From a plasmid: a stretch of 64,000 bases of DNA. The notes under the pieces were generated by a model that was not told where the DNA came from, searched no databases, and saw only the letters and a list, made by a program, of their open reading frames with translations. A program made the translations under genes and the position numbers. Below, piece after piece: positions 3,744-20,110 of this stretch. The stretch lies in the sequence record NZ_CP088228.1; one strand, given 5' to 3'. The stretch's first letter is position 1. Each line of letters opens with the position of its first letter.

Positions 3744-3930
3744 CCGCCGTGCCTTCACGCTAACCCGGCCGCTGCGGTCGCAAGGGTTCACGTTGTCTCC
3801 GTCCTCACCCGTTCGCGCCCTGCACGGTGCATTCAGCCCGTGAAGGGCTTGCGCTGCGGCTTCGGCGTCGCCCTGGCGTCCTCCGCTTTACGCCGTGTTT
3901 TTGTGGCGGCACGGCGCAAGAGGGTGCCGG
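3744..3930 (+). repeat. GC-rich ~190-bp leading-region repeat, family B copy 1 (ssi/Frpo-like candidate)
   Basis: Near-identical copies at 4728-4916 and 6470-6652; conserved 10-bp stem/10-nt loop (cacggtgcattcagcccgtg core) plus complementary termini; ends about 18 bp before ORF 3948. Confidence 0.7.
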
Positions 3931-3947
3931 ATGCTGAGGACACAACC

Positions 3948-4727: not shown

Positions 4728-4916
4728 TACGCCGTGCCTTCACGCTAACCCGGCCGCTGTGGTCGCAAGGGTTCACGTTGTCTCCGTCCTCACCCGTTCG
4801 CACCTTTCACGGTGCATTCAGCCCGTGAAAGGCTTGCGCTGCGGCTTGCGGCGTCGCCCCTGCGCCCTCCGCTTTTCGCCGGGTTTTTGTGGCGGCACGG
4901 CGCAACAGGGTGCCGC
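4728..4916 (+). repeat. Family B repeat copy 2
   Basis: Aligns with 3744-3930 and 6470-6652; precedes methyltransferase gene. Confidence 0.7.
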
Positions 4917-4937
4917 ATATCAGAGAGGAGTGTGTCT

Positions 4938-6326: not shown

Positions 6327-6469
6327 GGGAGAGAGCCGGGGTAACGCCCCGGCAACCGGTGGCCATCCACTGCGAAAAGGATGTCAGTGCCTTCCGCTTT
6401 TATCCGCCGCTGCCCTCCGGGCCACGTCGGGACAATGAAACTCCCCTGAAGCTCCGTGCGGTGACGGCA

Positions 6470-6652
6470 TGCGCCGTGACTTCACTGTAGCCCGGCCGCA
6501 TCGGCCACAAGGGTTCGCTTACGCCTCCGTCCTCACCCGTTCGCACCCTTCACGGTGCATTCAGCCCGTGAAGGCTTTGCGCTGCGGCTTGCGGCGTCGC
6601 CCCTGTGTCCTCCGCTTTTCGCCGGTCTGTCGTGTCGTCACGGCGATGCCGG
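6470..6652 (+). repeat. Family B repeat copy 3
   Basis: Aligns with copies 1 and 2; precedes klcA. Confidence 0.7.
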
Positions 6653-6682
6653 AACCGAGAATATGTTAACCGTGGAGGATCT

Positions 6683-7111
6683 ATGAACCAGACCGTGACC
6701 TGTGATGCTGTTCGTCTTGAGGGTGCGCAGCGCCTGACTTTCCTGCCTGATTTGTTTGGCGGCGATTTTATGACGTCCGAGGCATCCGTGTACGCCTATG
6801 CCCAGCGTTACTGCCCTGAGTATCAGGGGGGATTCTGGCAGTTTTACCGGCTGCCGGAAGGTGGCGGATATATGGCGCCTGACGTGGAGAGCCTGACCCT
6901 GTGCAAACCGGACAACTGGTTTGAGCAGACTGTCAGCGGGGAAGTGGCGGGGATCATTCTCACGGCGCTGGTACTGAATCACCGGAGCTGGCACCACAGC
7001 AACCATGACCATGAAGAGCTGTGCCGCCACTTCTGCCGCCGTTATGAGCAGCTTATGGCATTTGCTGATACCCATCCGGAAAGCGCCACGATCTGGCGTG
7101 CCCTTGACTGA
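6683..7111 (+). CDS. klcA: KlcA/ArdB-family antirestriction protein
   Basis: 142 aa; matches KlcA pattern RL.FLP..FG...M..EA.VYA......YCP.Y.GG.W.FY.L..GG.YMAPD. Confidence 0.8.
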   Translation: MNQTVTCDAVRLEGAQRLTFLPDLFGGDFMTSEASVYAYAQRYCPEYQGGFWQFYRLPEGGGYMAPDVESLTLCKPDNWFEQTVSGEVAGIILTALVLNHRSWHHSNHDHEELCRHFCRRYEQLMAFADTHPESATIWRALD

Positions 7112-7153: not shown

Positions 7154-7564
7154 ATGATTGGTACAGCAAAAGAGATCGCCATCGAAATGCTGCGTGATGA
7201 CGATAATGACGGCGAGAAATTTGTATTCGCCAGCTGGAGCCGGAACGATATTCGCGGTCTCTGCATTGACTGGGATCTCAGTGATGAAGAGATCGACGTG
7301 GTGATGGAAAGACTGGAGGCAGAGCTGTATCCCTCCGGATGTGTCCCTCTCATCTACAACATTGTTGAGATGATGGTGGAAGAAAAACGGAAACACCGTA
7401 ATGTCACCATTCCGGCTGCGGCGCTTGCGGTGGTGATGCAGCTTGCAGGGAAGGAAATGGAGCGTATCGCTGTATGCGCGGAGGATGGAGGCGGATCAGC
7501 GGCAGAAACCCTGAAAGAAGAAAATGACGTCATGTTGAGCCTGCGCGCGGCGCTCGATGCCTGA
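7154..7564 (+). CDS. Hypothetical highly acidic protein (136 aa)
   Basis: ORF 43 bp after klcA; about 27 percent Asp+Glu (DDDNDGEKF..., DLSDEEIDVVMERLEAEL). Confidence 0.5.
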   Translation: MIGTAKEIAIEMLRDDDNDGEKFVFASWSRNDIRGLCIDWDLSDEEIDVVMERLEAELYPSGCVPLIYNIVEMMVEEKRKHRNVTIPAAALAVVMQLAGKEMERIAVCAEDGGGSAAETLKEENDVMLSLRAALDA

Positions 7565-7613
7565 CTGAGAAACCGGAGGCATTGCCTCCGGAAACTGAAA
7601 AAAGGAGAACACC

Positions 7614-7811
7614 ATGCAACTGTCACCGGAAACCCGTAACATCCTGCGCCAGTATAAAACGCTCATCAACGAACGACGTCGCGAATCCGGACTCAGCCCC
7701 GTAACCACAGCGAAAGTGCTGGATGAGATCTGCGAATCGGCTACCCGCCAGTGCGCCGTCTATCTTTGCGGCCACTTCATTCTCCAGGGCGGACAGGGGG
7801 ATGGAAAGTAA
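7614..7811 (+). CDS. Small hypothetical protein (65 aa)
   Basis: ORF with upstream aaaggagaa RBS. Confidence 0.4.
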   Translation: MQLSPETRNILRQYKTLINERRRESGLSPVTTAKVLDEICESATRQCAVYLCGHFILQGGQGDGK

Positions 7812-7985
7812 ATAATCCGGGCGGGGCATAGGCGCCGCCTGTTCGCGCGCGAAAACCCTGTCATCCCTTCGGGCTGACGGACGGTAAGGCCAGCGCCTGC
7901 GGCGCCGCCCCCTCCCGCCCGGATGTAAGCCCGGAGAGATGCAGATGAAAGGCATTGTGAGGGCAAATTGTCACGGATACGGTCC

Positions 7986-8025
7986 TGCGTGGCGTGGCGT
8001 GGCGTGGCGTGGCGTGGCGTGGCGG
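7986..8025. repeat. Pentanucleotide tandem repeat (GGCGT)x~8
   Basis: gcgtggcgtggcgtggcgtggcgtggcgtggcg seen directly; immediately upstream of repeat A1. Confidence 0.9.
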
Positions 8026-8073
8026 CTCTGAAACCCGATCAGCAAATCCTCTGAAAACTCCTGAATCCCACTT

Positions 8074-8548
8074 CTGGCCCCCTTCGGCTCCCGGCCCGCG
8101 TGGCGGTCCGGTCGTCGAGCCCCACTCCGCCAGGTCGGCTGCTGACGCACCCGCCGGGCTCCGCCGAACCCGCAAGCGGTTTCGGGCTGACGCTAGGGTC
8201 TGATGGCTGAGGTCAACCCCCTGGCTTGCACCGGCCGGAGGCCGGGCCGCCCTGACCGCGCCGGCGGAGCCGTCGCTTTAAGGCCGCCACGCCGTTCCGA
8301 CGTGTCGGGTGCGTGCATCCTGTTCATCCGGTGAGGCCATCCCCCGTGCGTCCTCACGCGGAGGGCTGCTTGTAGCACCGTCGTGTCGTCATCCGAAGGG
8401 TGAAATGCACGCCGCCAAAACTTTTTGCGTGCCGCAAAAAGTTTTGTCTGCGCCCTTCTCCTGCCGCCCCGCCGTTGCTCCTTTTGCCCTTTGCCGCGAG
8501 AGAACTCACCAGGGAGATGGCCAGCCATCACCACAGGAGAAAACCAGG
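8074..8548 (+). repeat. GC-rich ~0.5-kb leading-region repeat, family A copy 1 (ssi/Frpo-like candidate)
   Basis: Highly similar copies at 13980-14517 and 17288-17827; each ends in caccacaggagaaaaccaggATG; similarity continues ~45 nt into the downstream ORF. Confidence 0.7.
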
Positions 8549-8821
8549 ATGCACACACGAAACGTCAACGTCAAAACCGCCGCTCAAGAATCTTCCAGGA
8601 AGATGGGGGAAGAACAAAACCCTGTTTCTGTCGCACGGGAGTGGGTGGCTCAGGCCACTTCGCTGAAGGCGGGGGTCACCGTCACCCTGTCCGATGCGTC
8701 CCGATACGGCGACGTGCAGGTGGAGATCCGCACCAACGGAACGCTTAACTGGCGCGCCTGGTCGTTTGAACCGGATTTTCTTTTTGAACTGAAACGCAAT
8801 CTGCAATACGTGCAGCTTTAA
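8549..8821 (+). CDS. Hypothetical protein (90 aa) with repeat-encoded N-terminus MHTRNVNVKTAAQES
   Basis: ATG at 8549 preceded by RBS aggagaa; first 15 codons shared with ORFs at 14518 and 17828. Confidence 0.55.
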   Translation: MHTRNVNVKTAAQESSRKMGEEQNPVSVAREWVAQATSLKAGVTVTLSDASRYGDVQVEIRTNGTLNWRAWSFEPDFLFELKRNLQYVQL

Positions 8822-8864
8822 CCGGAGGCCGGATGTCCGGCCTTAACCCAGAGAAGGAGGAAAC

Positions 8865-9230
8865 ATGCAGAACCTTAACACCCGTCCGGCGACCCGTAAG
8901 GTCGGGCAGAGCACCGAAATCGTGAAGCTGCTGCGCATTCAGGCCAGCGACACCCACGTGGTCGAGTTTGACAACGTGGACACCCGATTTAATGACTGCA
9001 ACAACTGGCAGGTGATGGCAGGAGGCAAACGAGTCCTGTTCAGCAACCGCATGTATGAGCGTTTTTCAGATGTGAAATCGGGGATCGTGGCAACGATCAA
9101 CGTTTGTGAAAACAGCGGCAGCGTAACGGATAAAGCGATGCTGGAAGGGGCAAAAGTCATGATGCAGCTTCTTGATGGCTATCCGTCCTTTGGAGCACTG
9201 GCAGCACACCCGAAACGCATTACCGGTTAA
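8865..9230 (+). CDS. Hypothetical protein (121 aa)
   Basis: ORF with RBS gaaggagga; upstream of ParB-like gene. Confidence 0.5.
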   Translation: MQNLNTRPATRKVGQSTEIVKLLRIQASDTHVVEFDNVDTRFNDCNNWQVMAGGKRVLFSNRMYERFSDVKSGIVATINVCENSGSVTDKAMLEGAKVMMQLLDGYPSFGALAAHPKRITG

Positions 9231-9297
9231 CCGGGTGCCGTGACCGGATCGCACTCCGGCCACGGCTAACCACAACTATTACTGAGAGGTAAAAATC

Positions 9298-11310
9298 ATG
9301 GTCGCCACCAATACTACGGCAAAAAAACCAGCCAGGACCACCCGTCAGACAAAATCTGCGGAAAAAATCGCGCAGTCTACCGAGCAGAAGCTCGTCCAGC
9401 TGCTCGCTGATACGCCCGTGCAAATCTTCCCGTACTCCCGCCTGTCACACACTGGCTTAAACACGCGCATCATTCCGCATACCGATCAGGAAGTGGAAGA
9501 GATGGCAGACAGCATTCAGGCAATGGGCATCCTGCAGAACCTGATCGGTGCAGAACTGCCGGACGGTACGATCGGCATTGTCGGCGGGGAAGGTCGCCGC
9601 AGAGGCACAGGCATTCTGGTGATGCGCGGTGTGCTCGATGCGGACACGCCGTTTGTTCCGGTGAAAGTCCTGCCCGTGGAGATGGCTGTGGCGGCCTCGA
9701 TGATCGAGAACGGTCGACGTAAAAACATGCATCCCGCCGAGCAGATTATCGGTTTTCGTACCCTTCAACAGGAAGGTAAAACGGCCTCTCAGATCGGCGC
9801 ACTGATGGGCTACCACCCGCGCCACGTTCAGCGCTGCCTGAAGCTGGCGAATCTTGCCCCCTCCCTGCTGGATGCGCTGGCGCGGGATGCAATCTCCCTT
9901 GAACAGTGTGAAGTCCTGACACTTGCTGATACCCATGAGCGTCAGGAGCAGGTCTGGAAAGAGGCTGTTGAACAGTGGCGCGATCCAGCCGTACAGACTC
10001 TGCGCAGAATGGTGACCGACGACAAGATGGCCATCAGTCACCCGATGTTTGAGTATGTGGGCGAGGAAGCCTATACCGCCGCTGGCGGTACGCTGACCGC
10101 CGACCTGTTCAGCGACAAGGACAGCACCTTTGCCGATGCGGCGCTGGTGAAATCTCTGCTGGCTGGCAAGCTCACCGTGCTCGCCGCTCGCGTTAAGCAG
10201 GAGCAGGGCTGGGGCTGGGCTGAGTTCCGTATGACGGAACTGCGTGCCAGCGGTGAGGACGGTGAACAGTACCGTTTTGCGATGCCGAAAGCTGTCCTGA
10301 CGGAAGAAGAACAGAAGCGCGTCAGTGAGCTGGAAGAACAAATGGAAGCGACTGAAAGCTACGATGACGAATACGCGATTCAGGAGCAGATTGATGATAT
10401 CTACTGCGAGGCGACTTACCGCGAAGCCACGCCGGAATTTCGCGCCGCCCACGGTATCTGGGTGTCATGGGATGGTGACAATTTTCGGGTTCAGCCCGGT
10501 ATCCGCAGGCTGACCGACGAAGACCGGGTAGCTGAAGAACAGGCGCGTCAGGAACGTGAAAGCAATGTGATCAGACACACCACGCCTGACATTCCCGCCG
10601 ACGCTTATCCGGCAACGCTGGTAAAAGCTATGTCAGCCGAACGGACTCTCGCCGTTCAGGCCGAACTGGCGGGGCGTCCCGACGTATCGGTGGCGCTCCT
10701 GACGTGGACACTGTGCCTCAGTATGTTTGACCGCAGCTACGGTAAACGCAGCGAACCGCTGAAAGCCTCCGTGTCCTCGAATCAGTATCACCTTGCATCA
10801 CTGGCTCCATCCGGTGAAGAAGGGAAGGCGCTGACGGCGCTCAAAGCGCAGAAAGAGGCGCTTCAGGCAACGCTGCCCGAAAACTGGCATCTCGATTTCA
10901 CGTGGCTGCTTTCATGGTCAGCGGAGCAGGTGAACACCCTGCTGGGATTCTGTGCCGCGCACGGTATCAACGGTATTCAGGAACGTATGTACAACCATAC
11001 GCAGAAAAGCGAACTGGACGGGCTGGAAGCGGCGCTGGACTTTGACCTGCGCAAATGGTGGCAGCCGGATGCTGAGAGCTACTTCGGCAAGCTCACCATC
11101 GCCCAGATTGGCAAAGCCTACGAAGAAGCCGGACTCAGTGCCCGCGCCGGAGAGATTGTGAAGCTCAAGCGCCGCGATGCGGCGAAGGCCGCCGAGCAGG
11201 ATCTGAATGCTCAGGGCTGGCTGCCTGACTGGATGGTGCGCACATCACCAACCGCTGAGGCTGAAGAAGCCACCGAAACCGACGCTCACACCACTGACCA
11301 CGCTGCTTAA
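9298..11310 (+). CDS. ParB/KorB-like nuclease-domain protein of IncF leading regions (670 aa)
   Basis: N-terminal ParB-like segment (SRLSHTGLNTRIIPH...GILQNLIG...GRRR) and large size typical of the leading-region ParB-like protein that precedes psiB in F-like plasmids. Confidence 0.7.
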   Translation: MVATNTTAKKPARTTRQTKSAEKIAQSTEQKLVQLLADTPVQIFPYSRLSHTGLNTRIIPHTDQEVEEMADSIQAMGILQNLIGAELPDGTIGIVGGEGRRRGTGILVMRGVLDADTPFVPVKVLPVEMAVAASMIENGRRKNMHPAEQIIGFRTLQQEGKTASQIGALMGYHPRHVQRCLKLANLAPSLLDALARDAISLEQCEVLTLADTHERQEQVWKEAVEQWRDPAVQTLRRMVTDDKMAISHPMFEYVGEEAYTAAGGTLTADLFSDKDSTFADAALVKSLLAGKLTVLAARVKQEQGWGWAEFRMTELRASGEDGEQYRFAMPKAVLTEEEQKRVSELEEQMEATESYDDEYAIQEQIDDIYCEATYREATPEFRAAHGIWVSWDGDNFRVQPGIRRLTDEDRVAEEQARQERESNVIRHTTPDIPADAYPATLVKAMSAERTLAVQAELAGRPDVSVALLTWTLCLSMFDRSYGKRSEPLKASVSSNQYHLASLAPSGEEGKALTALKAQKEALQATLPENWHLDFTWLLSWSAEQVNTLLGFCAAHGINGIQERMYNHTQKSELDGLEAALDFDLRKWWQPDAESYFGKLTIAQIGKAYEEAGLSARAGEIVKLKRRDAAKAAEQDLNAQGWLPDWMVRTSPTAEAEEATETDAHTTDHAA

Positions 11311-11347
11311 TACCGGAGGCCGCCGCCTTCGGGCGGCGGGAACAGAC

Positions 11348-11782
11348 ATGACTATGCAATATGACCTGAACCAAATCAACAAACTGACCGCCTCCGACCT
11401 GGAGTTTATCCGTCAGCAGGGCGAGGACGCGCGCCGCGCCCTCAGCGATACCGTGACCGGCCTCCTGTCGACACCAGAAGGATGGCACGTCTGCGCCGAA
11501 TACCGCAGCGAGTTCGGCGGCTTCTTCCCCGTCCAGTGCCGCTTCAGCGCGGACGGCAGCGATGACTGGCATCTGTGCGTGTGCAGCCCCGGCGAAGTCT
11601 CGCCGTACTGGCTTCTGGTACTGCTCTCCTCCGGCGGGGAAGTGGTGCGTACCCTTTACCAGAGTGACACGCTACAGCCTGACCGGATAAGCCAGCTGAT
11701 CGCGCAGCTGGCAGGTATGCGCCGCTTTAACTGCACTGCCCGCACCGTGGCGAACCTGATGAGCGGGGAGGTGACAGCATGA
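11348..11782 (+). CDS. psiB: PsiB, plasmid SOS inhibition protein B
   Basis: 144 aa from ATG 11348; EYRSEFGGFFPVQ...CSPGEVS... matches the PsiB family. Confidence 0.85.
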   Translation: MTMQYDLNQINKLTASDLEFIRQQGEDARRALSDTVTGLLSTPEGWHVCAEYRSEFGGFFPVQCRFSADGSDDWHLCVCSPGEVSPYWLLVLLSSGGEVVRTLYQSDTLQPDRISQLIAQLAGMRRFNCTARTVANLMSGEVTA

Positions 11783-12507
11783 TCCCATCCTCACACGCGC
11801 TCGTTTCCCTGAAGCCCGCCCGTCAGGCTGCAATACAGGCTATCAGCCATGTTGAGTCTGCCCGCGAACGCGGCGCACGACTGCCCGCCATGCCGTATGT
11901 GCGTACCTTTCTGCGTCTTCTCACGGGCAGCGGACGCCTCAACGCCACGGTGGCCAGTAAAATACCTGGCCTGCACTGGGTGCCAAATAACCGTCATTCG
12001 AACCTGAAACAGGTCGAGGAGGCGCTTAACACGATGATCGCCACCAGTGGCGAAGCCTGCCCGCTGCCGCTCACGATTGACGTACAGGCCGAACTGTTTC
12101 CTGAGGTCATGCACACCCGCACGGGTCGACGGCTGCACCGGTCCGGCATTAAGACCACGCGCCAGCTGCGCCGCCAGTCCCGTGAGTACGAACAGCGCTG
12201 GAAACTGCGCCAGAACCTGCTGGAGCAGGCGAAAATTGACCTGAATTTTCAGTCTCCGGAAACCGTCTGCACCTGGTACACCCGGTGGAGCGACGAGTTT
12301 GACGCGGCAGAGCTTGCCGGACCGTTCTGGCGCTGGCAGTCGCGGTTCGCGTCGCTGAAGGAACTTGACTGGCTTCGCATCAGCGGTGAGCCGCTGTATA
12401 CAGTGATGTATGAAATCCCGTTTATTGTCCGGGAAACACCTGAGCATGTTCGTGTCGCTGAACGCTGGCAGGTGCCAAATAAGCTGGCTGACCGGAGCGG
12501 TGTATGA
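11779..12507 (+). CDS. psiA: PsiA, plasmid SOS inhibition protein A
   Basis: 242 aa overlapping psiB stop; size, position and sequence character of PsiA. Confidence 0.75.
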   Translation: MIPSSHALVSLKPARQAAIQAISHVESARERGARLPAMPYVRTFLRLLTGSGRLNATVASKIPGLHWVPNNRHSNLKQVEEALNTMIATSGEACPLPLTIDVQAELFPEVMHTRTGRRLHRSGIKTTRQLRRQSREYEQRWKLRQNLLEQAKIDLNFQSPETVCTWYTRWSDEFDAAELAGPFWRWQSRFASLKELDWLRISGEPLYTVMYEIPFIVRETPEHVRVAERWQVPNKLADRSGV

Positions 12508-12830
12508 AGTGGCGCTATTCCCTGCGCTGGAAATTGCCGCACAAGCCCTGCCCAGGTCTACTGGAGCTGGTTTCAGTTGTCGTGGAGGCAGGGCAGGCGG
12601 CACCTGAGGAGGTGATGGCACGCTGGGTTGCTGGCTCAGGTTACGCTGTTTGCGTGGATTTTCTCGGTCAGAAACAGATCCAGCGCTGGAGCGATGAACG
12701 GAAAGCCGCAGTGAGAAGGCGCAATATGCAGGCACGGATTAATCGTGTTGCCCCTTTGTTTGCCGATGAGTTAATCGAGCGTGAGCTGGCTGCACGTCAG
12801 GCATATTTCAATGGCAAGTCCGCCCGATGA
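12504..12830 (+). CDS. Hypothetical protein (108 aa) coupled to psiA
   Basis: ATGA overlap with psiA stop. Confidence 0.4.
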   Translation: MKWRYSLRWKLPHKPCPGLLELVSVVVEAGQAAPEEVMARWVAGSGYAVCVDFLGQKQIQRWSDERKAAVRRRNMQARINRVAPLFADELIERELAARQAYFNGKSAR

Positions 12831-12885
12831 ATCAGATACAATGTTGTCTGACTGCTCAGACAAAACATATAAGGAAAGCAGAATT

Positions 12886-13260
12886 ATGAGGTACTGGTTG
12901 CTCGTTATCTTCCTGAACGTGCTGTTCTATTTAATCGTTAAGCATGCTGCGCCAGAATGGCATGGTACGCCTGGTTATTATGCAGGCCAGATCATCTGCA
13001 CACTAATAGCTCTGGTCATCACATGGCGTGATCCGCCTGGCTGGTTAGATGAAATCCTGCTCGGCGTAATGAAATACGGAGTTCTGAGTGCCGGGATCAT
13101 CTTCTTTGTCTGGGGCGTCGGGTACAAGCTGGCATTCTGGGGGCAGGGTAATTCTGATGCCGAATTTGTAAGTGCATTTGACGTCATTTTGCCCAATCTT
13201 GCGCTGGTCACGGGCGTAGTGATCGCGGGATGGGGATACCTGAGATATTTCAGGCGATAA
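12886..13260 (+). CDS. Hypothetical small membrane protein (124 aa, 3-4 TM)
   Basis: ATG 12886 with aggaaagcag RBS; hydrophobic segments. Confidence 0.5.
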   Translation: MRYWLLVIFLNVLFYLIVKHAAPEWHGTPGYYAGQIICTLIALVITWRDPPGWLDEILLGVMKYGVLSAGIIFFVWGVGYKLAFWGQGNSDAEFVSAFDVILPNLALVTGVVIAGWGYLRYFRR

Positions 13261-13389
13261 GCAGCATAAAGCGTGGATATACCTGGTAAGAAAGAGCACC
13301 TGCCCGGTATAATCGACGTGGCGCTTGAGGCTTTTTGCCTCATGACGTGAAGGTGGTTTGTTGCCGTGTTGTGTGGCAGAAAGCAGAAA

Positions 13390-13455
13390 GCCCCGTAGTT
13401 AATTTTCATTAACCCACGAGGCCCCCTGTATGTCTCAACAACAACAGTATGGCCT
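13390..13455 (-). ncRNA. sok: Putative Sok-like antisense RNA
   Basis: Inferred from hok/sok family organisation (antisense to hok leader at mok start); not independently visible. Confidence 0.3.
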
Positions 13456-13645
13456 CTTACCGTGCTTAATGCAAGGAGGAGTAAACCATGAAACTGCCGC
13501 GAAACGCCCTTATCTGGTGCGTATTAATCGTGTGTATAACGCTCTTAATATTCACATGCCTGACCCGGAACCGCTTATGCGAACTCCGGCTAAAGGACGG
13601 GGACAGGGAGGTCGCGGCAAGCCTGGCTTACGAATCCAACGGTAA
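13430..13645 (+). CDS. mok: Mok-like overlapping reading frame
   Basis: 71-aa ORF overlapping hok in another frame, as in hok/mok/sok loci. Confidence 0.4.
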
Positions 13646-13649
13646 GTAG
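13488..13649 (+). CDS. hok: Hok/Gef-family type I toxin
   Basis: [53 protein letters not shown], close match to Hok/FlmA/SrnB; RBS aaggagga. Confidence 0.9.
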
Positions 13650-13654
13650 CAACC

Positions 13655-13682
13655 TGGAGGCGGGGGAAACCCCGCCTTTTCA
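13655..13682 (+). terminator. Rho-independent terminator after hok
   Basis: ggaggcgggggaaaccccgccttttc stem-loop plus T-run. Confidence 0.7.
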
Positions 13683-13721
13683 GGGCTGAGTTGCTCGGAC
13701 ATGCCTGAAGCGCCTTTATGA

Positions 13722-13754
13722 AGGGGTTGCCGGTTCGCCGGTAGCCCCTTTTTC
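13722..13754 (+). terminator. Second stem-loop/T-run
   Basis: ggggttgccggttcgccggtagcccctttttcc. Confidence 0.55.
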
Positions 13755-13979
13755 CATCCCGAAGGGTGCAGTCGCATGCATGAACAACCCGGAAGGTCTG
13801 TTCCCCTGCGGGGAACGGGGGAAGGGGGACGCGCCTTCGGCGCTGCCCCTCTGCTCCCTCCGCCTTGCCCTCTCTCCTGCCTGATTTTGCTGAAGTCAGC
13901 GCGCCATGAGTTACCTGCCTGTCTCTGGCTTCGGCCTGGTTTTCCCTGTGCTCTTCATCCCGGGCGTTATATCCGGCGT

Positions 13980-14517
13980 CCTGCTGGTTAACTTTCTCAG
14001 CTGCAGCTCAGTGGCCATAACCCAAAAAACGGGCAGGGCGATGGCCCCCTTCGGCTCCCGGCCAGCGCTGCTGTCCGGTCGTCGAGCCCCACTCCGCCAG
14101 GGCGGCCGCTGCGCACCCGCCGGGCTCCGCCGAACCCGCAAGCGGTTTCGGGCTGACGCTAGGGTCTGATGGCGAAGGTCAGGGGCTGCGGCTTCTCCGG
14201 CCGTGCCGTCCGGAACGCCTTCACCGCGCCGGCTGATGCCGTCGCTTTAATGGCGCCACGCCGTTCCGACGTGTCGGGTGTGTGCATCCTGTTCCCCCGG
14301 TGAAGCCATCCCCCGTGCGTCCTCACGCGGAGGGCTGCTTGTAGCACCGTCGTGTCGTCATCCGAAGGGTGAAATGCACTCCGCCAAAACTTTTTGCGTG
14401 CCGCAAAAACTTTCGTCTGCGCCCTTCTTCTGCCGCCCCGCCGTTGCTCCTTTTGCCCTTTGCCGCGAGAGAACTCACCAGGGAGATGGACAACCATCAC
14501 CACAGGAGAAAACCAGG
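13980..14517 (+). repeat. Family A repeat copy 2
   Basis: Aligns with 8074-8548 and 17288-17827. Confidence 0.7.
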
Positions 14518-14832
14518 ATGTACACACAAAACGTCAACGTCAAAACCGCCGCTCAGGAATCTTCCAGGAAGATAGGGGGAAAAACCGTGTCGTACACGTT
14601 CCTCGTCGCTGAGCAGAAAAAAAACTCAGCGGAGGAACCGGACGTTCTGGAGTTCAGCAGCCTGGCTGAGCTGAAGAAACTGCGCAGAAACTGCCCCGAA
14701 ACGATGCGCTGCACCTATTTCTACGCCCTCAGCAGCGGCGTCGATAAACAGTTCCGCCATATCCATGTGGCTGAAGCAGACCACTTCAAACAGTTTGTGC
14801 GCCTGATCGAGCGCGCAGGTATCGACATTTAA
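14518..14832 (+). CDS. Hypothetical protein (104 aa) with repeat-encoded N-terminus MYTQNVNVKTAAQES
   Basis: ATG 14518 after aggagaaaaccagg; diverges from 8549 ORF after about codon 17. Confidence 0.55.
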   Translation: MYTQNVNVKTAAQESSRKIGGKTVSYTFLVAEQKKNSAEEPDVLEFSSLAELKKLRRNCPETMRCTYFYALSSGVDKQFRHIHVAEADHFKQFVRLIERAGIDI

Positions 14833-14892
14833 ATCCGGTTCACCCCGTGCGGCACCCGCCGCACGGAACCTCATCAGACAGGAGCCAGAAAC

Positions 14893-15099
14893 ATGAGCGT
14901 TAACACCCCGACCGCAAAGGCCTGTTCCGGAAATGGGCATATGTCAGGCCCGGAGCCTAAAACAGCCACTCTCATTGCGATTTATGGCAATGAGGCGAGC
15001 TATTCATGGAACGTTCTGGAGGATCTGAAAGCTGCAGGTGCTTCTTATACCCGCAGAAACATTATCGCCGATATGTTCCGCCGTCTGGGCGTTCAGTAA
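14893..15099 (+). CDS. Small hypothetical protein (68 aa)
   Basis: ORF with RBS aggagcc. Confidence 0.4.
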   Translation: MSVNTPTAKACSGNGHMSGPEPKTATLIAIYGNEASYSWNVLEDLKAAGASYTRRNIIADMFRRLGVQ

Positions 15100-15176
15100 C
15101 CCGGATTTTCCTTCGACCCGATGCGGTGCTGTATAGCAGTTACCGCCCGGAACTAAATCAAACAGGAGCCTGAAAG

Positions 15177-15638
15177 ATGAACGTTAATCCTCCGACCGCT
15201 GCACCAATGGCCTTTTTCGTTCCGTCTCATAACGCCGTTTATGACCGCGCAACACAGCTGGACGGGCAGTGGGTGACTCAGCGTGAAGCGAAAACGCTGG
15301 AATCCCTTCGCCGTCTCTATCCGGATGCTGAGCTGATCTCCGCGACTCTGGTACAGGAAAAGCTGAATGACGGCTATCGCCGTCCCTGGGTGGAAATCAC
15401 CGAGGCCCGGTATATCGACCAGCTGGAAACGTTGCCGCCAGTGGACTGGTGCAGGGGGTATGGCGGGGAGTCGTTCAAATCGATGGAGTTTACGGGCGGG
15501 GATGTGACAGCGATTTTTGTCCGGTATGGCGCGCGTTTCTTTGAGTGCCATGACCTGCACACCCGCCATCACCGTGAGCTGATTGGCGACGTGATCGCAC
15601 GTTTCTGTCTCGATGCGTCGCTGAATTCCGCGCATTAA
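15177..15638 (+). CDS. Hypothetical protein (153 aa)
   Basis: ORF with RBS aggagcc. Confidence 0.5.
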   Translation: MNVNPPTAAPMAFFVPSHNAVYDRATQLDGQWVTQREAKTLESLRRLYPDAELISATLVQEKLNDGYRRPWVEITEARYIDQLETLPPVDWCRGYGGESFKSMEFTGGDVTAIFVRYGARFFECHDLHTRHHRELIGDVIARFCLDASLNSAH

Positions 15639-15721
15639 AAAAGCAGGGTTGCCCCTGCTTTCTCAACGCCGTATCTGGCCGACCAAAACGAGATACGGCA
15701 ATCACAACCAAAGTAAGGAGA

Positions 15722-15928
15722 TTGATCGTGAAATTTGACCCGCAAACTGTCGCACAGGCGAAGGCATTTGTAAATGCCCTCCGCGCCGGAAAACGCGCTC
15801 GCGTACCCGCGCTGCGCTTCTCACAGTGGCAGCCGTTCCTGTCCGTGGTAAATGCCGAAACGGGCTACGCCACCGATGCTGACTGTGGTCTGGCTGTCAG
15901 CGTCTACCCGGCGCTTGGACTGGCTTAA
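15722..15928 (+). CDS. Small hypothetical protein (68 aa)
   Basis: ORF with RBS aaggagat. Confidence 0.4.
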   Translation: MIVKFDPQTVAQAKAFVNALRAGKRARVPALRFSQWQPFLSVVNAETGYATDADCGLAVSVYPALGLA

Positions 15929-15968
15929 CAGGAGACGGCCGCCTGCGGGCGGCCGGTAAGGAGAAACC

Positions 15969-16760
15969 ATGTCACAACTGAGTTTTGAATCCCTGTTCCT
16001 GGCCGACCAGGCTGATCCGCAGCCGCGGGCTTCCGCACCGGCCCGGATGCTGTCGCCAGCTGAGGCGCGTAAAGAATTCGCCAGTGTCTTCCGTCAGATG
16101 GCGAAAAATATGCGCCGTTCCGAAGTGTTCCGCGACTTCATCACCCTCGCAGCCAGCGAGCTGGATATGGCCCGTATTCGCTCGCCGGAGAACATCGAAA
16201 ACAGCCGTCGCATCTGCGAACGGTATAAGCCGGACGATCTGGACGCCATGAAGCAGCTGTTCTGCCTGTTGGTGGAGGGGCTGGCGGGTGAAATTCATGA
16301 TTTCCTCGGCGCTCTGTATATGGAGCAGGAGCTGGGCGCGGACGAAATGGGGCAGTATTTCTCCCCGTCCTGCATCTCCCGCATGATGGCCGGACTACTC
16401 ATGCCCGGCGCTCAGGAGACGATAAAGCGTGAGGGGTGGATGACGCTCGATGAGCCTGCCTGTGGTAGCGCCGGAATGGTCATTGCCTTTGCATACTGGA
16501 TGGCTGAAGCGGGATATAACCCTTCACAACAGCTGTATGCCACCTGCACTGACATCGATCCAATGGTGGCAGATATGGCCTTTATCCAGCTGGCACTGCT
16601 GGGTATACCCGCGAAAGTCGTGACCGGTAATACGCTGACCCTGAAAGCGAACCGAGTGCGTTACACCCCTGTTTATTACTTCAATGACTGGCAGGGCCGT
16701 CTGGCATTTCGCAGTCGTCTGGATGCAATGAAAAAATTTCTGGCCACCGTGGCCGCCTGA
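15969..16760 (+). CDS. HsdM-like gamma-class N6-adenine methyltransferase-related protein lacking catalytic motif IV
   Basis: 263 aa; motif X-like GQYFSPS and motif I LDEPACGSAGMV as in type I HsdM, then YATCTDIDPMVADMAFIQLALLGI; no NPPF/Y-type motif before stop. Confidence 0.6.
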   Translation: MSQLSFESLFLADQADPQPRASAPARMLSPAEARKEFASVFRQMAKNMRRSEVFRDFITLAASELDMARIRSPENIENSRRICERYKPDDLDAMKQLFCLLVEGLAGEIHDFLGALYMEQELGADEMGQYFSPSCISRMMAGLLMPGAQETIKREGWMTLDEPACGSAGMVIAFAYWMAEAGYNPSQQLYATCTDIDPMVADMAFIQLALLGIPAKVVTGNTLTLKANRVRYTPVYYFNDWQGRLAFRSRLDAMKKFLATVAA

Positions 16761-16802
16761 CTGACAGAGCGGCAGGGCAGACCTGCCGCAGGGAGAGAGA
16801 AA

Positions 16803-17138
16803 ATGACAAGCAACACACTGAACGCTGTTCCGGCCACCGTGCTGGAGACGATGGCAGAACGCCTGCAAGGCCAGGCTGAACCGATAAAAATCCGCAGCAA
16901 CGACGATCACGCCGCGCTGGCTGCAGATGTGCTCTGGAAATTTGCCCGTAAAACCGGGCTGAACAGGGAAAGCGAAAGCGTGCAAACTGTCATCACGGAT
17001 TTTCTGGCCAATCTGCTGCACCTGTGCGAACAGTGCGAGCCGGACGGGGCTGGCATCGAGGGATTTAATGCCCTGCTGAACATGGCCATGATGCACTATG
17101 AGCAGGAAAACGGAGGGGACAGCGAAGAACCTGTTTGA
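16803..17138 (+). CDS. Hypothetical protein (111 aa)
   Basis: ORF with RBS gggagagagaaaATG. Confidence 0.45.
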   Translation: MTSNTLNAVPATVLETMAERLQGQAEPIKIRSNDDHAALAADVLWKFARKTGLNRESESVQTVITDFLANLLHLCEQCEPDGAGIEGFNALLNMAMMHYEQENGGDSEEPV

Positions 17139-17287
17139 TCGGGAGTCTGTGCCCTGATGGATACCATCAGGGCAACCGCAAAAAAACGCATCCCCTTCGG
17201 GGAAACGGGGAGGGCGAAAGCGCCTCCGGCGCTCCTGCCGTTCCCCGTTGCTGTGCTTCACTCCTTACCTGCGAGCATAGCCAGCAT

Positions 17288-17827
17288 CCTGCTGGTTAAC
17301 TTTCTCTGCTGCAGCTCAGTGGCCATAACCTGAAAACAGGGCAGGGTGATGGCCCCCTTCGGCTCCCGGCCAGCGCTGCTGTCCGGTCGTCGAGCCCCAC
17401 TCCGCCAGGGCGGCCGCTGCGCACCCGCCAGGCTCCGCCGAACCCCTTCGGGTTTCGGGCCATACGGCTAGGGTCTGATGGCGAAGGTCAAAGGCTGCGG
17501 CTTCTCCGGCCGTGCCGTCCGGAACGCCTTCACCGCGCCGGCTGATGCCGTCGCTTTAAGGCCGCCACGCCGTTCCGACGTGTCGGGTGTGTGCATCCTG
17601 TTCCCCCGGTGAAGCCATCCCCCGTGTGTCCTCACGCGGAGGGCTGCTTGTAGCACCGTCGGGTCGTCATCCAAGGGGTGAAATGCACTCCGCCAAAACT
17701 TTTTGCGTGCCGCAAAAACTTTAGTCTCCGCCCCTTTCCTTCCGCCCTTCGCCGTTGCTCCTTTGCCCTTTGCCGCGAGAGAACTCACCAGGGAGATGGA
17801 CAACCATCACCACAGGAGAAAACCAGG
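17288..17827 (+). repeat. Family A repeat copy 3
   Basis: Aligns with copies 1 and 2. Confidence 0.7.
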
Positions 17828-18121
17828 ATGCACACACGAAACGTCAACGTCAAAACCGCCGCTCAAGAATCTACCGGAAGATGTGATTCAAACCTCACCA
17901 TGTCCCAGTTCACGGATCTGTTTTGCTGGGTCCTGGCCGCATCGGAAGGGGAGCCACAACCGGCAATTTTTACGCCGCCAGAGAATGCCACTGAGCTGAC
18001 GTTAATAAATGACGAATGCCCGGATTATATCTCTGTCTGGTTTGTAGATGGTCGCCCGGTGGCAGCTGCAATGCCGCTGGATAATTTTCATCGCGTTATT
18101 TCTTCATCTCTTACTAAATAA
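17828..18121 (+). CDS. Hypothetical protein (97 aa) with repeat-encoded N-terminus MHTRNVNVKTAAQES
   Basis: ATG 17828; identical first 15 aa to ORF 8549, then unrelated sequence. Confidence 0.55.
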   Translation: MHTRNVNVKTAAQESTGRCDSNLTMSQFTDLFCWVLAASEGEPQPAIFTPPENATELTLINDECPDYISVWFVDGRPVAAAMPLDNFHRVISSSLTK

Positions 18122-18137
18122 TCAGGAGTAAATAAAA

Positions 18138-18959
18138 ATGGTCAGTTTCGCAAGCCGCTATCGTATGCCTACATCGATCCGCAAAGACCGTCCGCTGACG
18201 AATGATGAATTACAGCGCATCGTTCCGAGCGCGTTCTCATCGGATAAACACGATTCACGCTCTGAACGTTATACGTATATCCCGACCATTAACATTCTTG
18301 ATCGCTTACGTGATGAAGGTTTTCAGCCATATTATGCAACTCAGTCACGTACACGTGACCAGGATAAACGCGACTTTACAAAGCATATGCTTCGCCTGCG
18401 CCGTCATGACCAGATTAACGGAAAAGAAGTGCCGGAAATTATTCTGCTGAATAGCCATGATGGTTCAAGCAGCTATAAAATGATCCCCGGCATGTTCCGT
18501 CAGGTTTGCAGTAATGGTCTGGTTGCATGGAAGGATTTTGGTGAAATCCGCGTACCCCACAAAGGGGATATTGTCGGGCAGGTTATTGAAGGCGCTTACA
18601 CGGTGCTGAAAACATTCGACGCGGTTGATGAAAATATAGACCTCATGAAAAGCATTCAGCTCACTTTGCCTGAGCAGCGCCTTTTGGGTGCGACCGCCCT
18701 GGAACTTAAATACGATGGAAAACCAGCGCCGATTACACCGGAGCAAATTATTAACCCTCGCCGTGTGCTCGACAGAGGCCAGGATTTATGGACCACGTTT
18801 AACGTGGTGCAGGAAAATGTGATCCGTGGGGGAATTCGTGGCAGAACGGAAAAAGGGAAGATGACCAGAACGCGGGAAGTCACCGGAATAGATGGTGACA
18901 TCAAATTAAATCAGGTGCTCTGGAAAATGGCGGAGGAGTTTGCAAAACTGAAGGCCTGA
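18138..18959 (+). CDS. DUF932-type conserved leading-region protein (273 aa)
   Basis: Size, position next to oriT/geneX and sequence character of the ~270-aa protein conserved in IncF leading regions. Confidence 0.6.
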   Translation: MVSFASRYRMPTSIRKDRPLTNDELQRIVPSAFSSDKHDSRSERYTYIPTINILDRLRDEGFQPYYATQSRTRDQDKRDFTKHMLRLRRHDQINGKEVPEIILLNSHDGSSSYKMIPGMFRQVCSNGLVAWKDFGEIRVPHKGDIVGQVIEGAYTVLKTFDAVDENIDLMKSIQLTLPEQRLLGATALELKYDGKPAPITPEQIINPRRVLDRGQDLWTTFNVVQENVIRGGIRGRTEKGKMTRTREVTGIDGDIKLNQVLWKMAEEFAKLKA

Positions 18960-19639: not shown

Positions 19640-20110
19640 AAGGGATTTAACACCTGTCCGAAATAAACATGCCAGAACGGTAGACGGTATTAACATGCCG
19701 CTCTTTACTAACCCTTTTAAACATCACACCCCACGCAAGACTTCGTCTTGCAGATTTTTTCTTTTAATTCATATATATACCTGTGCTTATTATGCGGAAT
19801 TATGCTGTGTGAACGATAAAGGTGTGTGCATCAGCACACATTGCAGTGCCTGAACCCCACACACTACAGTGCCTAATCAAGCACTGTAGTGTGTGCTAAT
19901 CCAGCACTGCTGAGTGTGGGGATTGTGTGTATTCAATAAATAGAGTAACTTAAAAATGGGTAGTGCCTGATGAACACACATCACAGTGCCTGATGCACAC
20001 ACATGGTGGTGCCTGATGCACACACATGACAGTGCCGGATTAGCACACATCCAAAAGCCAGATTCACGCAAATCCTCAGTAAGTTACAGAACAACGTAAC
20101 TCCGGGAACT
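19640..20110. other. oriT: F-type origin of transfer (oriT) with nick site and TraM-binding repeats
   Basis: Minus strand reads gcaagacgaagtcttgcGTGGGGTGT|GATG, matching F gcaaaaacttgtttttgcGTGGGGTGT|GGTG (nick between + positions 19726/19727); downstream direct/inverted repeats cacacaYNRYRGTGCC x6 (19840-20045) resemble sbm TraM sites. Confidence 0.75.

Follow-up and report, generated by a model that had tools for sequence, protein, structure and literature searches.

Why should three otherwise unrelated plasmid genes begin with the same peptide? This question is raised by a 64,000-nt stretch of the plasmid record NZ_CP088228.1 (hereafter the window, at its full length), in which three direct repeats of ~0.52 kb each run past the start codon of the open reading frame (ORF) behind them. 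In our reading, which we hold to be probable, the repeats are class-1 single-stranded DNA (ssDNA) promoters of the Frpo/ssi/ssp1 kind in the leading region of an F-like conjugative plasmid. They would supply a built-in start, the shared peptide would be a passenger, and the genes behind the repeats, which we call cargo, would be exchanged via the repeats themselves.

Three repeats with a start codon inside

We compared the copies by a repeat search and a three-way MAFFT alignment, reading identity in 40-column windows. The core common to all three lies at 8075–~8600, 14042–~14575, and 17350–~17875, and copies 2 and 3 alone have an extra 73 nt on the 5′ side (13969–14041 and 17277–17349). Pairwise identity was 80–100% per 40 columns, save in two short mosaic patches, and fell to 12–53% past window position ~8600. 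One conserved 19-mer, AACGTCAAAACCGCCGCTC, occurs three times in the window vs. 0.01 times expected, and AGGAGAAAACCAGGATG is present in every copy (8535–8551, 14504–14520, and 17814–17830). The 3′ end of each copy consists of AGGAG-N9-ATG and 16–19 common codons, after which an otherwise unrelated ORF continues. The three ORFs (8549–8821, 90 aa; 14518–14832, 104 aa; 17828–18121, 97 aa) open with M(H/Y)T(R/Q)NVNVKTAAQES, and once this shared tag was removed, they fell into separate BLAST clusters. A preliminary description of this DNA had reported three similar repeats with similarity running past the ATG, and a common N-terminus followed by full divergence; the alignment and the clusters confirm both, with the earlier coordinates off by a few bases. 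Its estimate of ~15 shared codons holds for the common start but not for the extent, as tag identity between copies 1 and 2 extends to codon ~20 and that of copy 3 only to codon 16. The window is near-identical to the F-type (MPF_F) plasmid NZ_OQ821071 of Enterobacter hormaechei, in which the annotation pipeline PGAP places the same three start codons.

Two observations concern the upstream edge of copy 1. A perfect (GCGTG)7.6 microsatellite at 7987–8024 adjoins it, and the alignment with a metagenome plasmid (L115) stops exactly at 8024; this is the tract that had been described as (GGCGT)n at the copy's edge, which is real but differs in phase. Coordinate offsets between the window and NZ_OQ821071 also indicate a ~52-nt length difference somewhere within 7564–8549.

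To follow the built-in start beyond the window, the conserved 19-mer was searched in one genome per species, and metagenomes were searched with an anchor in the left hairpin arm, a choice that is unbiased as to the 3′ tail of the unit. In one subfamily (type A), the tail reads ...GCCGCTC, with a Shine-Dalgarno (SD) sequence and ATG 12 or 18 nt upstream. By contrast, the type found in F (type B) reads ...GCGGCTC and is without an ATG, the cargo having its own SD and ATG 40–70 nt downstream. In the metagenome scan, 75 of the 95 usable units bore the tail, and the ATG was in register in every one of these 75, while the other 20 represent a third 3′-end variant without the tail (type C). The tail-less units (L076, L084, L086, L088, and 15 others from metagenomes) have the same anchor and right arm, followed after GCCGCGAAAGG by an unrelated leader, and their cargo has its own SD and ATG and no tag; a further unit, L087, looks like a chance match to the anchor.

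The tag was also found on many further C-termini. Outside the window, genomes and metagenomes yielded 107 tagged ORFs of 60 aa or more; these formed 16 BLAST clusters, one of which seems to be a frameshift, leaving ~15 real families. The carriers belong to Enterobacter, Klebsiella, Citrobacter, Serratia, Erwinia, Yersinia, and Rahnella. Tagged cargo includes YgeA homologues, the families of orf97 and orf90 (the tagged ORFs behind copies 3 and 1), an antirestriction (ArdB/KlcA-type) protein, DUF1419 proteins, a 124-aa protein of Klebsiella pneumoniae KPC plasmids, and several families of 100–250 aa without a Pfam domain. Pfam searches with cargo representatives gave only weak DUF905 and DUF1419 matches, all among the window ORFs; the Pfam Antirestrict match is to the window's untagged protein at 6683–7111, to which the tagged L037 protein aligns by BLASTP. 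A protein search with the doubled tag returned only 37 ORFs, all of at most 74 aa, and none of the longer cargos; DNA pattern scans told much more. The earlier proposal that the repeat supplies a promoter, leader, SD, ATG, and ~16–20 codons to different cargos is supported, and the in-frame tag on ~15 families shows that the fusion is no isolated case. Because the frame is kept by compensating single-base indels (CCAGGAAGATGGGGG vs. CCGAAAGATGGGGGG) and orf97 and orf90 have no conserved internal Met, the shared ATG is the only consistent start; no alternative start is conserved.

Homology with F and the hairpin on the transferred strand

The repeats align with Frpo1 (upstream of ygeA) and Frpo2 (upstream of ssb) of F in conserved blocks along the hairpin and the tail (MAFFT; F segments 63.5–64.0 kb and 58.0–58.7 kb). 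A tail block of 14–19 nt is fully conserved between F and the window, and global identity to the two F elements was 0.64–0.68. The F elements were first described as ssDNA promoters by Masai and Arai in 1997 (as cited in PMC9849209), are required for early expression in transconjugants (PMC9849209), and were later named class 1 or ssp1 (PMC12672017; bioRxiv 10.64898/2026.01.09.698686). Class-1 transcription start sites have been mapped in pESBL (PMC12672017). An Frpo-like structure had been raised earlier only as something to check; folding the transferred strand does yield a hairpin, but the earlier interpretation missed that the repeats belong to a known family.

The plasmid is an F-like one from Enterobacter, and the repeats occupy its leading region, at distances of 1.9–11 kb from a nic site like that of F. 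Because the motif that resembles the F nic site is on the minus strand at 19718–19736, the minus strand is the transferred one. The motif (GCGTGGGGTGTGATGTTTA) sits in an A+T-rich oriT region flanked by the SLT gene and traM. The genes headed by the repeats are all on the plus strand, and therefore the transferred strand is their template; psiB, psiA, and the DUF932 gene lie behind repeats, with traM and the tra genes further downstream. Along the window, the order is methylase, antirestriction gene, ParB-like gene, psiB, psiA, hok/sok, small ORFs, DUF932, SLT gene, and traM, and the succession of Frpo, small ORF, DUF932, SLT gene, oriT, and traM is as in F.

The minus strand of each copy is predicted to fold as a hairpin of ~250 nt. 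For copy 3, DNA parameters gave −85.7 kcal/mol with a z-score of −6.4 (range −6.0 to −6.4), vs. −65.4 kcal/mol for the plus strand of the same segment. Under RNA parameters, the transferred strand was the more stable of the two in all 30 non-redundant copies, which come from many genera; its mean advantage was 20.7 kcal/mol, and it was richer in G-T pairs. A sliding 300-nt fold over 1–21 kb did not single out the hairpins: high G+C content let nearly everything pass, and the minus-strand advantage was partly regional. The RNAalifold consensus of 15 diverse type-A copies contained 73 pairs, with 95% of cells paired, and 20 of its pairs were changed on both sides, vs. 10.1 ± 1.9 in shuffles (0 of 500 reached 20) and 2–9 in slid controls.

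The base of this hairpin reaches into the coding sequence. The basal helix (helix 3), in which 8541–8558 pairs with 8309–8325 and the corresponding positions pair in the other copies, spans the post-SD spacer, the ATG, and codons 2–4, and compensatory change is seen at five of its pairs. A C/A polymorphism in codon 2 (His/Asn) covaries with its left-arm partner, giving GC in eight sequences and UA in four. For type A, RNAalifold also predicts a possible basal extension up to codon 11, made of two helices with a 6-nt bulge between them. In the anchor-chosen sample, the invariant ORF nucleotides 13–21 and 28–33 coincide with these predicted helices, and the variable or deletable nucleotides 22–27 coincide with the predicted bulge. 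The same extension into the tail was rejected for F-type elements, in which RNAalifold favors a local hairpin.

In their homology to F, their place and orientation, and a covarying hairpin specific to one strand, the repeats agree with class-1 ssDNA promoters. Recognition by RNA polymerase, transcription from ssDNA, the timing of expression, and silence as duplex would carry over from the work on F and pESBL. In promoters of this class, −35 and −10 boxes are rebuilt within the stem, with mismatches near −10; the only candidate boxes here are TTGGAT-N16-(TGc)TACAAG on the minus strand (17674–17647). Within the conserved 19-mer, the minus strand also has a −35-like TTGACG, which was dropped as a promoter for want of a conserved −10 partner, and a relaxed promoter scan gave no site conserved across copies. 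In an Rfam search, no family matched the repeats; only sok matched, with symR far under the gathering threshold.

The tag peptide and the exchange of cargo

The preliminary description had also asked whether the shared peptide is a signal. That the ~20 residues are functional, as a degradation tag, a targeting or secretion signal, or a peptide-level translation enhancer, and are retained on that account, is in our judgment unlikely. Such a function is favored by the tag's presence in frame on 107 ORFs from ~15 families and seven genera, by the compensating indels that restore its frame, and by mRNA near the start whose structure does not exceed that of shuffled sequence (z +0.1 to +1.2), which is compatible with an accessible initiation region. 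However, the variation within the tag is close to random expectation: of the 40 distinct single-base variants in the first 16 codons of the anchor-chosen set, 29 are non-synonymous and 11 synonymous (random change would make 23% synonymous), and the variants fell on codon positions 1, 2, and 3 in 15, 9, and 16 cases. Residues 2, 4, 13, 15, and 16 vary freely (H/N/Y/S/D, R/Q/H, Q/P/L/H/K), while the invariant stretches show no change at any of the three codon positions and match the predicted helices, the variable stretch being the predicted bulge. Codon 2 covaries with the opposite hairpin arm, as described above. At the end of the unit, the nucleotides of GAAGATGGGG are conserved but are read as K-M-G or R-W-G, in two frames. 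The homologous tail is an untranslated leader in F, yet of all blocks perfectly conserved between F and the window it is the longest. Five cargo families also have members that lack the tag, namely F YgeA and the window's antirestriction, orf68, and DUF1419 proteins, each with a start of its own, and DUF905 proteins of F and pESBL, for which the match is short and weak. Sec signals have a positively charged N-region and then a hydrophobic core of at least 10 residues, and Tat signals a twin-arginine motif as well. Read directly, MHTRNVNVKTAAQESSRKMG is polar, with no hydrophobic stretch and no RR motif, and is therefore not a Sec- or Tat-type signal.

These results argue against a signal, and we conclude that the peptide is mostly a passenger, its sequence held mainly by nucleic-acid constraints, namely pairing at the hairpin base and membership in the repeat unit. 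Tag copies without a hairpin are far more diverged. Two such copies head orf68 and the DUF1419 gene in module 2; they are 57 nt each and 81% identical to each other, and look like scars of earlier promoter fusions. The N-terminus of F YgeA (MSTRNIHVNTA) resembles these decayed tags.

Cargo appears to have changed by way of the repeats. The three window copies are mosaic, copy 2 being like copy 1 in some segments and like copy 3 in others. Related plasmids differ by whole modules, with break points inside repeats: one (L029) equals the window minus 14574–17275, with its junction within a copy 2/copy 3 hybrid; in L115, ~8025–14041 is missing and the junction falls in copies 1 and 2; and in L075 the same slots hold different cargos. 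Many independent cargos join near one 3′ boundary, ...GATGGGGG(N)AAAAC, and scraps of earlier cargo remain at some junctions, such as GEEQNP, common to orf90 and L056. A 144-aa tagged ORF (L151:440) contains a second, degenerate tag 40 residues in (...QNININTAARESAGQW...), which suggests nested fusions. Such module differences are what homologous recombination between dispersed 0.5-kb repeats would give, making the leading region effectively modular.

The break points within repeats, the nearly common 3′ boundary of independent cargos, and the mosaic copies could also be taken to mean that the repeats serve first of all as the recombination sites of a dedicated, integron- or mobile-element-like cassette system, with their promoter features secondary. 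We regard this as very improbable. No integrase, transposase, or recombinase is annotated in the 28.6-kb context of NZ_OQ821071, in or beside its leading region, and the modules are bounded by promoter repeats rather than cassette-specific sites. Ordinary homologous recombination over 0.5 kb at 90–100% identity is enough to explain the break points, and the junctions with pieces of earlier cargo, together with the second decayed tag in L151, point to sloppy rather than site-specific joining. Moreover, the strand-biased, covarying hairpin and the Frpo homology are directly explained by a promoter. The shuffling system suggested in the preliminary description stands in a passive sense, as modules that break inside mosaic repeats, with no recombinase annotated nearby.

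Least credible of all is that the repeat is an ordinary duplex promoter/terminator region or codes for a protein on the opposite strand: all three copies do have long minus-strand ORFs (111–122 aa; 8193–8558, 14159–14527, and 17468–17803), and RefSeq annotates one such antisense ORF inside F Frpo2, but the N-terminal frames of copy 3 are unlike those of copies 1 and 2, the indels that separate diverse copies have lengths not divisible by three, PGAP leaves these ORFs unannotated in NZ_OQ821071, the linear sequence has no sigma-70 consensus pair on either strand, the repeats match no Rfam family, and folding is strongly strand-specific. The frame differences between copies indicate that the antisense ORFs are artifacts of a G+C-rich palindrome.

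The modules behind the copies are listed with the other features in Table 1. Each copy had been described as heading an operon, and a module does lie behind each; the one behind copy 1, said to be psiB/psiA, also contains orf90, orf121, the ParB-like gene, and orf108.

Table 1. Positions of the repeats, their parts, and the neighboring features within the window
Feature	Position	Strand	Basis or remark
Repeat copy 1, probable class-1 ssDNA promoter unit: GC-rich 5′ half, main hairpin, leader, SD, ATG, tag	8075..8600	+	alignment, F Frpo1/2 homology
Repeat copy 2; core from 14042	13969..14575	+	repeat search, alignment
Repeat copy 3; core from 17350	17277..17875	+	repeat search, alignment
Built-in start, copy 1: SD AGGAG 8535–8539, ATG 8549, tag MHTRNVNVKTAAQESSRKM	8535..8605	+	ORF annotated from same ATG in NZ_OQ821071
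Built-in start, copy 2: SD 14504–14508, ATG 14518, tag MYTQNVNVKTAAQESSRKI	14504..14574	+	
Built-in start, copy 3: SD 17814–17818, ATG 17828, tag MHTRNVNVKTAAQEST	17814..17875	+	
Predicted main hairpin, copy 1 (possible basal extension 8291–8580)	8309..8558	-	stem base holds complement of SD-proximal spacer, ATG, codons 2–4
Predicted main hairpin, copy 2 (possible extension 14260–14549)	14278..14527	-	
Predicted main hairpin, copy 3 (possible extension 17569–17859); A+T-rich apex ~17698–17722	17587..17837	-	DNA fold
Module 1 behind copy 1: orf90 8549–8821 (weak DUF905-like C-terminus), orf121 8865–9230, ParB-like 9298–11310	8549..12830	+	
Module 1, continued: psiB 11348–11782, psiA 11779–12507, orf108 12504–12830	within 8549..12830	+	
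Module 2 behind copy 2: tagged YgeA homologue 14518–14832, orf68, DUF1419, orf68b, N6 DNA methylase 15969–16760, orf111	14518..17138	+	
Module 3 behind copy 3: tagged orf97 17828–18121, DUF932 gene 18138–18959 (F ygeB counterpart)	17828..18959	+	
Decayed SD and tag, no hairpin, heading orf68 (MSVNTPTAKACSGNGH..., MSVNTPTA)	14859..14915	+	whole tag aligns with tagged homologue L052
Decayed SD and tag, no hairpin, heading DUF1419 gene (MNVNPPTA...)	15143..15199	+	repeat family D6
F-like nic-site motif GCGTGGGGTGTGATG	19718..19736	-	pattern search, 1 match vs. 0.03 expected

Other features lie around these modules. A hok/sok locus (13319–13649) is found between module 1 and copy 2, with an Rfam sok match of 97.8 bits at 13319–13490 and the Hok ORF at 13488–13649; there is none between copies 2 and 3, and plasmids without that segment exist (L029). 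Two further segments with only 54–56% G+C fold more stably on the minus strand under RNA parameters, 9151–9480 (−121 to −125 vs. −88 kcal/mol on the plus strand) and 15541–15840 (−133 vs. −102 kcal/mol), and a weak, sub-threshold symR-like Rfam match lies on the minus strand at 9234–9303. A second family of three direct repeats, each of ~190 nt (3745–3932, 4730–4918, and 6473–6661), probably represents class-2 (ssp2-like) ssDNA promoters. Two of these copies precede the methylase gene (~4990) and the antirestriction gene (6683–7111), and the minus strand at 6400–6690 folds into a hairpin of ~215 nt (z −3.2).

How the module may work, and its known relatives

In the mechanism we propose, conjugation would bring the window's minus strand into the recipient with its 5′ end first, beginning at the nic site near 19.7 kb. 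The imperfect palindrome of ~250 nt in each incoming module would fold into the hairpin, which the host RNA polymerase, by homology with F, would treat as a duplex promoter. The leading genes (psiB/psiA, the methylase, DUF932, and small unknown proteins) could then be transcribed before the complementary strand is made, and synthesis of that strand would abolish the hairpin and turn the promoter off. In type A, the basal stem encodes the SD, the ATG, and the first codons, and the conserved unit runs on for ~20 codons. Because the element itself carries the SD, ATG, and codons, a start-less gene placed behind it must be joined in frame and inherits the type-A consensus peptide, M(H/N)T(R/Q)NV(NV)KTAA(Q/P)ES..., with selection on the peptide presumably playing little part. 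Dispersed near-identical promoter copies would act as portable homology, through which promoter-plus-cargo modules could be gained, lost, and exchanged.

Several points weigh against this interpretation. The IncI1 elements ssi1-3 and the type C variant work, or at least exist, without the tail, and the tail past the main stem (codons 5–20) is only partly explained; the predicted extension helices are invariant, so they give no covariation signal, and they were not recovered in F-type elements. Since the copies are phylogenetically related, shuffles overstate the significance of the covariation, and the slid controls are the safer comparison. The strand asymmetry of folding energy may be partly compositional, as much of the leading region favors the minus strand. 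A linear sigma-70 consensus scan of the window copy found no −35/−10 pair on either strand, but it was also negative on the validated F Frpo1 and hence is uninformative. The placement of the ATG downstream of +1 is suggested by frame conservation. Finally, the tag persists on ~15 families, so it may bring a mild benefit at the peptide level.

A bolder extension, which we offer tentatively and consider rather doubtful, is that type-A elements are self-contained "entry expression cassettes," with a stem-encoded start that peels RNA off the template, in a recombinase-free, integron-like array. With the SD, AUG, and first ~11 codons in the basal stem, the hairpin may re-anneal behind RNA polymerase. 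This may free the ribosome-loading RNA from the ssDNA template, where it would otherwise be an RNA:DNA hybrid or primer, and may permit translation before the second strand is made. The repeats may then serve as homology arms for swapping in-frame cargo that is mostly uncharacterized and possibly anti-defense.

In a new host, leading-region genes are expressed ahead of all other plasmid functions, and they decide the passage of resistance plasmids past SOS induction, restriction, and CRISPR. The built-in start explains the common N-terminus of many "hypothetical proteins" on plasmids of Enterobacter, Klebsiella (KPC plasmids), Citrobacter, and Serratia, and it carries a warning for annotation, since a shared N-terminus is no sign of homology between tagged proteins. 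The tag or its DNA offers a simple sequence handle for harvesting early-expressed cargo, of which the ~15 families, mostly without a Pfam domain, are candidate establishment or anti-defense genes. The single-strand promoter and start region also form a natural compact part for expressing a payload only on plasmid entry.

Among known systems, class 1 integrons offer a functional parallel. Their Pc promoter and a translation-initiation region at attI1 (ORF-11) serve cassettes that lack a start of their own, so that, as in the window, a fixed upstream unit gives a transcription and translation start to interchangeable promoterless genes, sometimes with N-terminal extensions. However, the window has no integrase and no attC sites, exchange appears to use homologous recombination between repeated promoters, and the promoter would, by analogy with F, be an ssDNA hairpin active only on entry. 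The complementary-strand origins of filamentous phages (M13) are also ssDNA hairpins that mimic a duplex promoter for the sigma-70 holoenzyme, with transcripts that can prime DNA synthesis. They differ in making only short primers, in heading no protein-coding operons, and in containing no start codon.

Of the same class are the ssi1-3 elements of IncI1 plasmids (ColIb-P9, pESBL; PMC12672017), which like the window repeats have a class-1 role and occur as three dispersed copies heading leading-region operons. The A+T-rich apex of their hairpin is 74–80% identical to F over ~80–120 nt, but they have no conserved tail and no built-in ATG, and the SD and ATG of the cargo follow directly. In our literature search, which did not extend to older subscription papers, we found no mention of the tag or of a built-in start in ssDNA promoters. 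The element is thus a known one and not a new kind of system, and it is the architecture, with the SD, ATG, and ~20 codons inside the unit, that is apparently undescribed.

Frpo1 and Frpo2 of F (ssp1a and ssp1b) are related in sequence. They share homologous hairpin blocks and the 3′ tail AACGTCAAAACCGCSGCTC..GAA.CT...GATGGGGG with the window repeats, although overall identity is only ~66–68%, and they occupy the same place in the leading region with the same neighbors (DUF932/ygeB, psiB/psiA, and hok). Both systems have a long imperfect hairpin on the transferred strand, and in both, near-identical copies are dispersed and two of them flank a hok/sok locus, which in F is flm, between Frpo2 and Frpo1. 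The difference lies in the start. The F elements contain no start codon, their tail is not translated but forms a leader, and an SD and ATG belonging to ygeA or ssb itself follow 40–70 nt on, whereas in the window the base of the stem carries the SD and ATG, and the tail is the first ~20 codons of the cargo.

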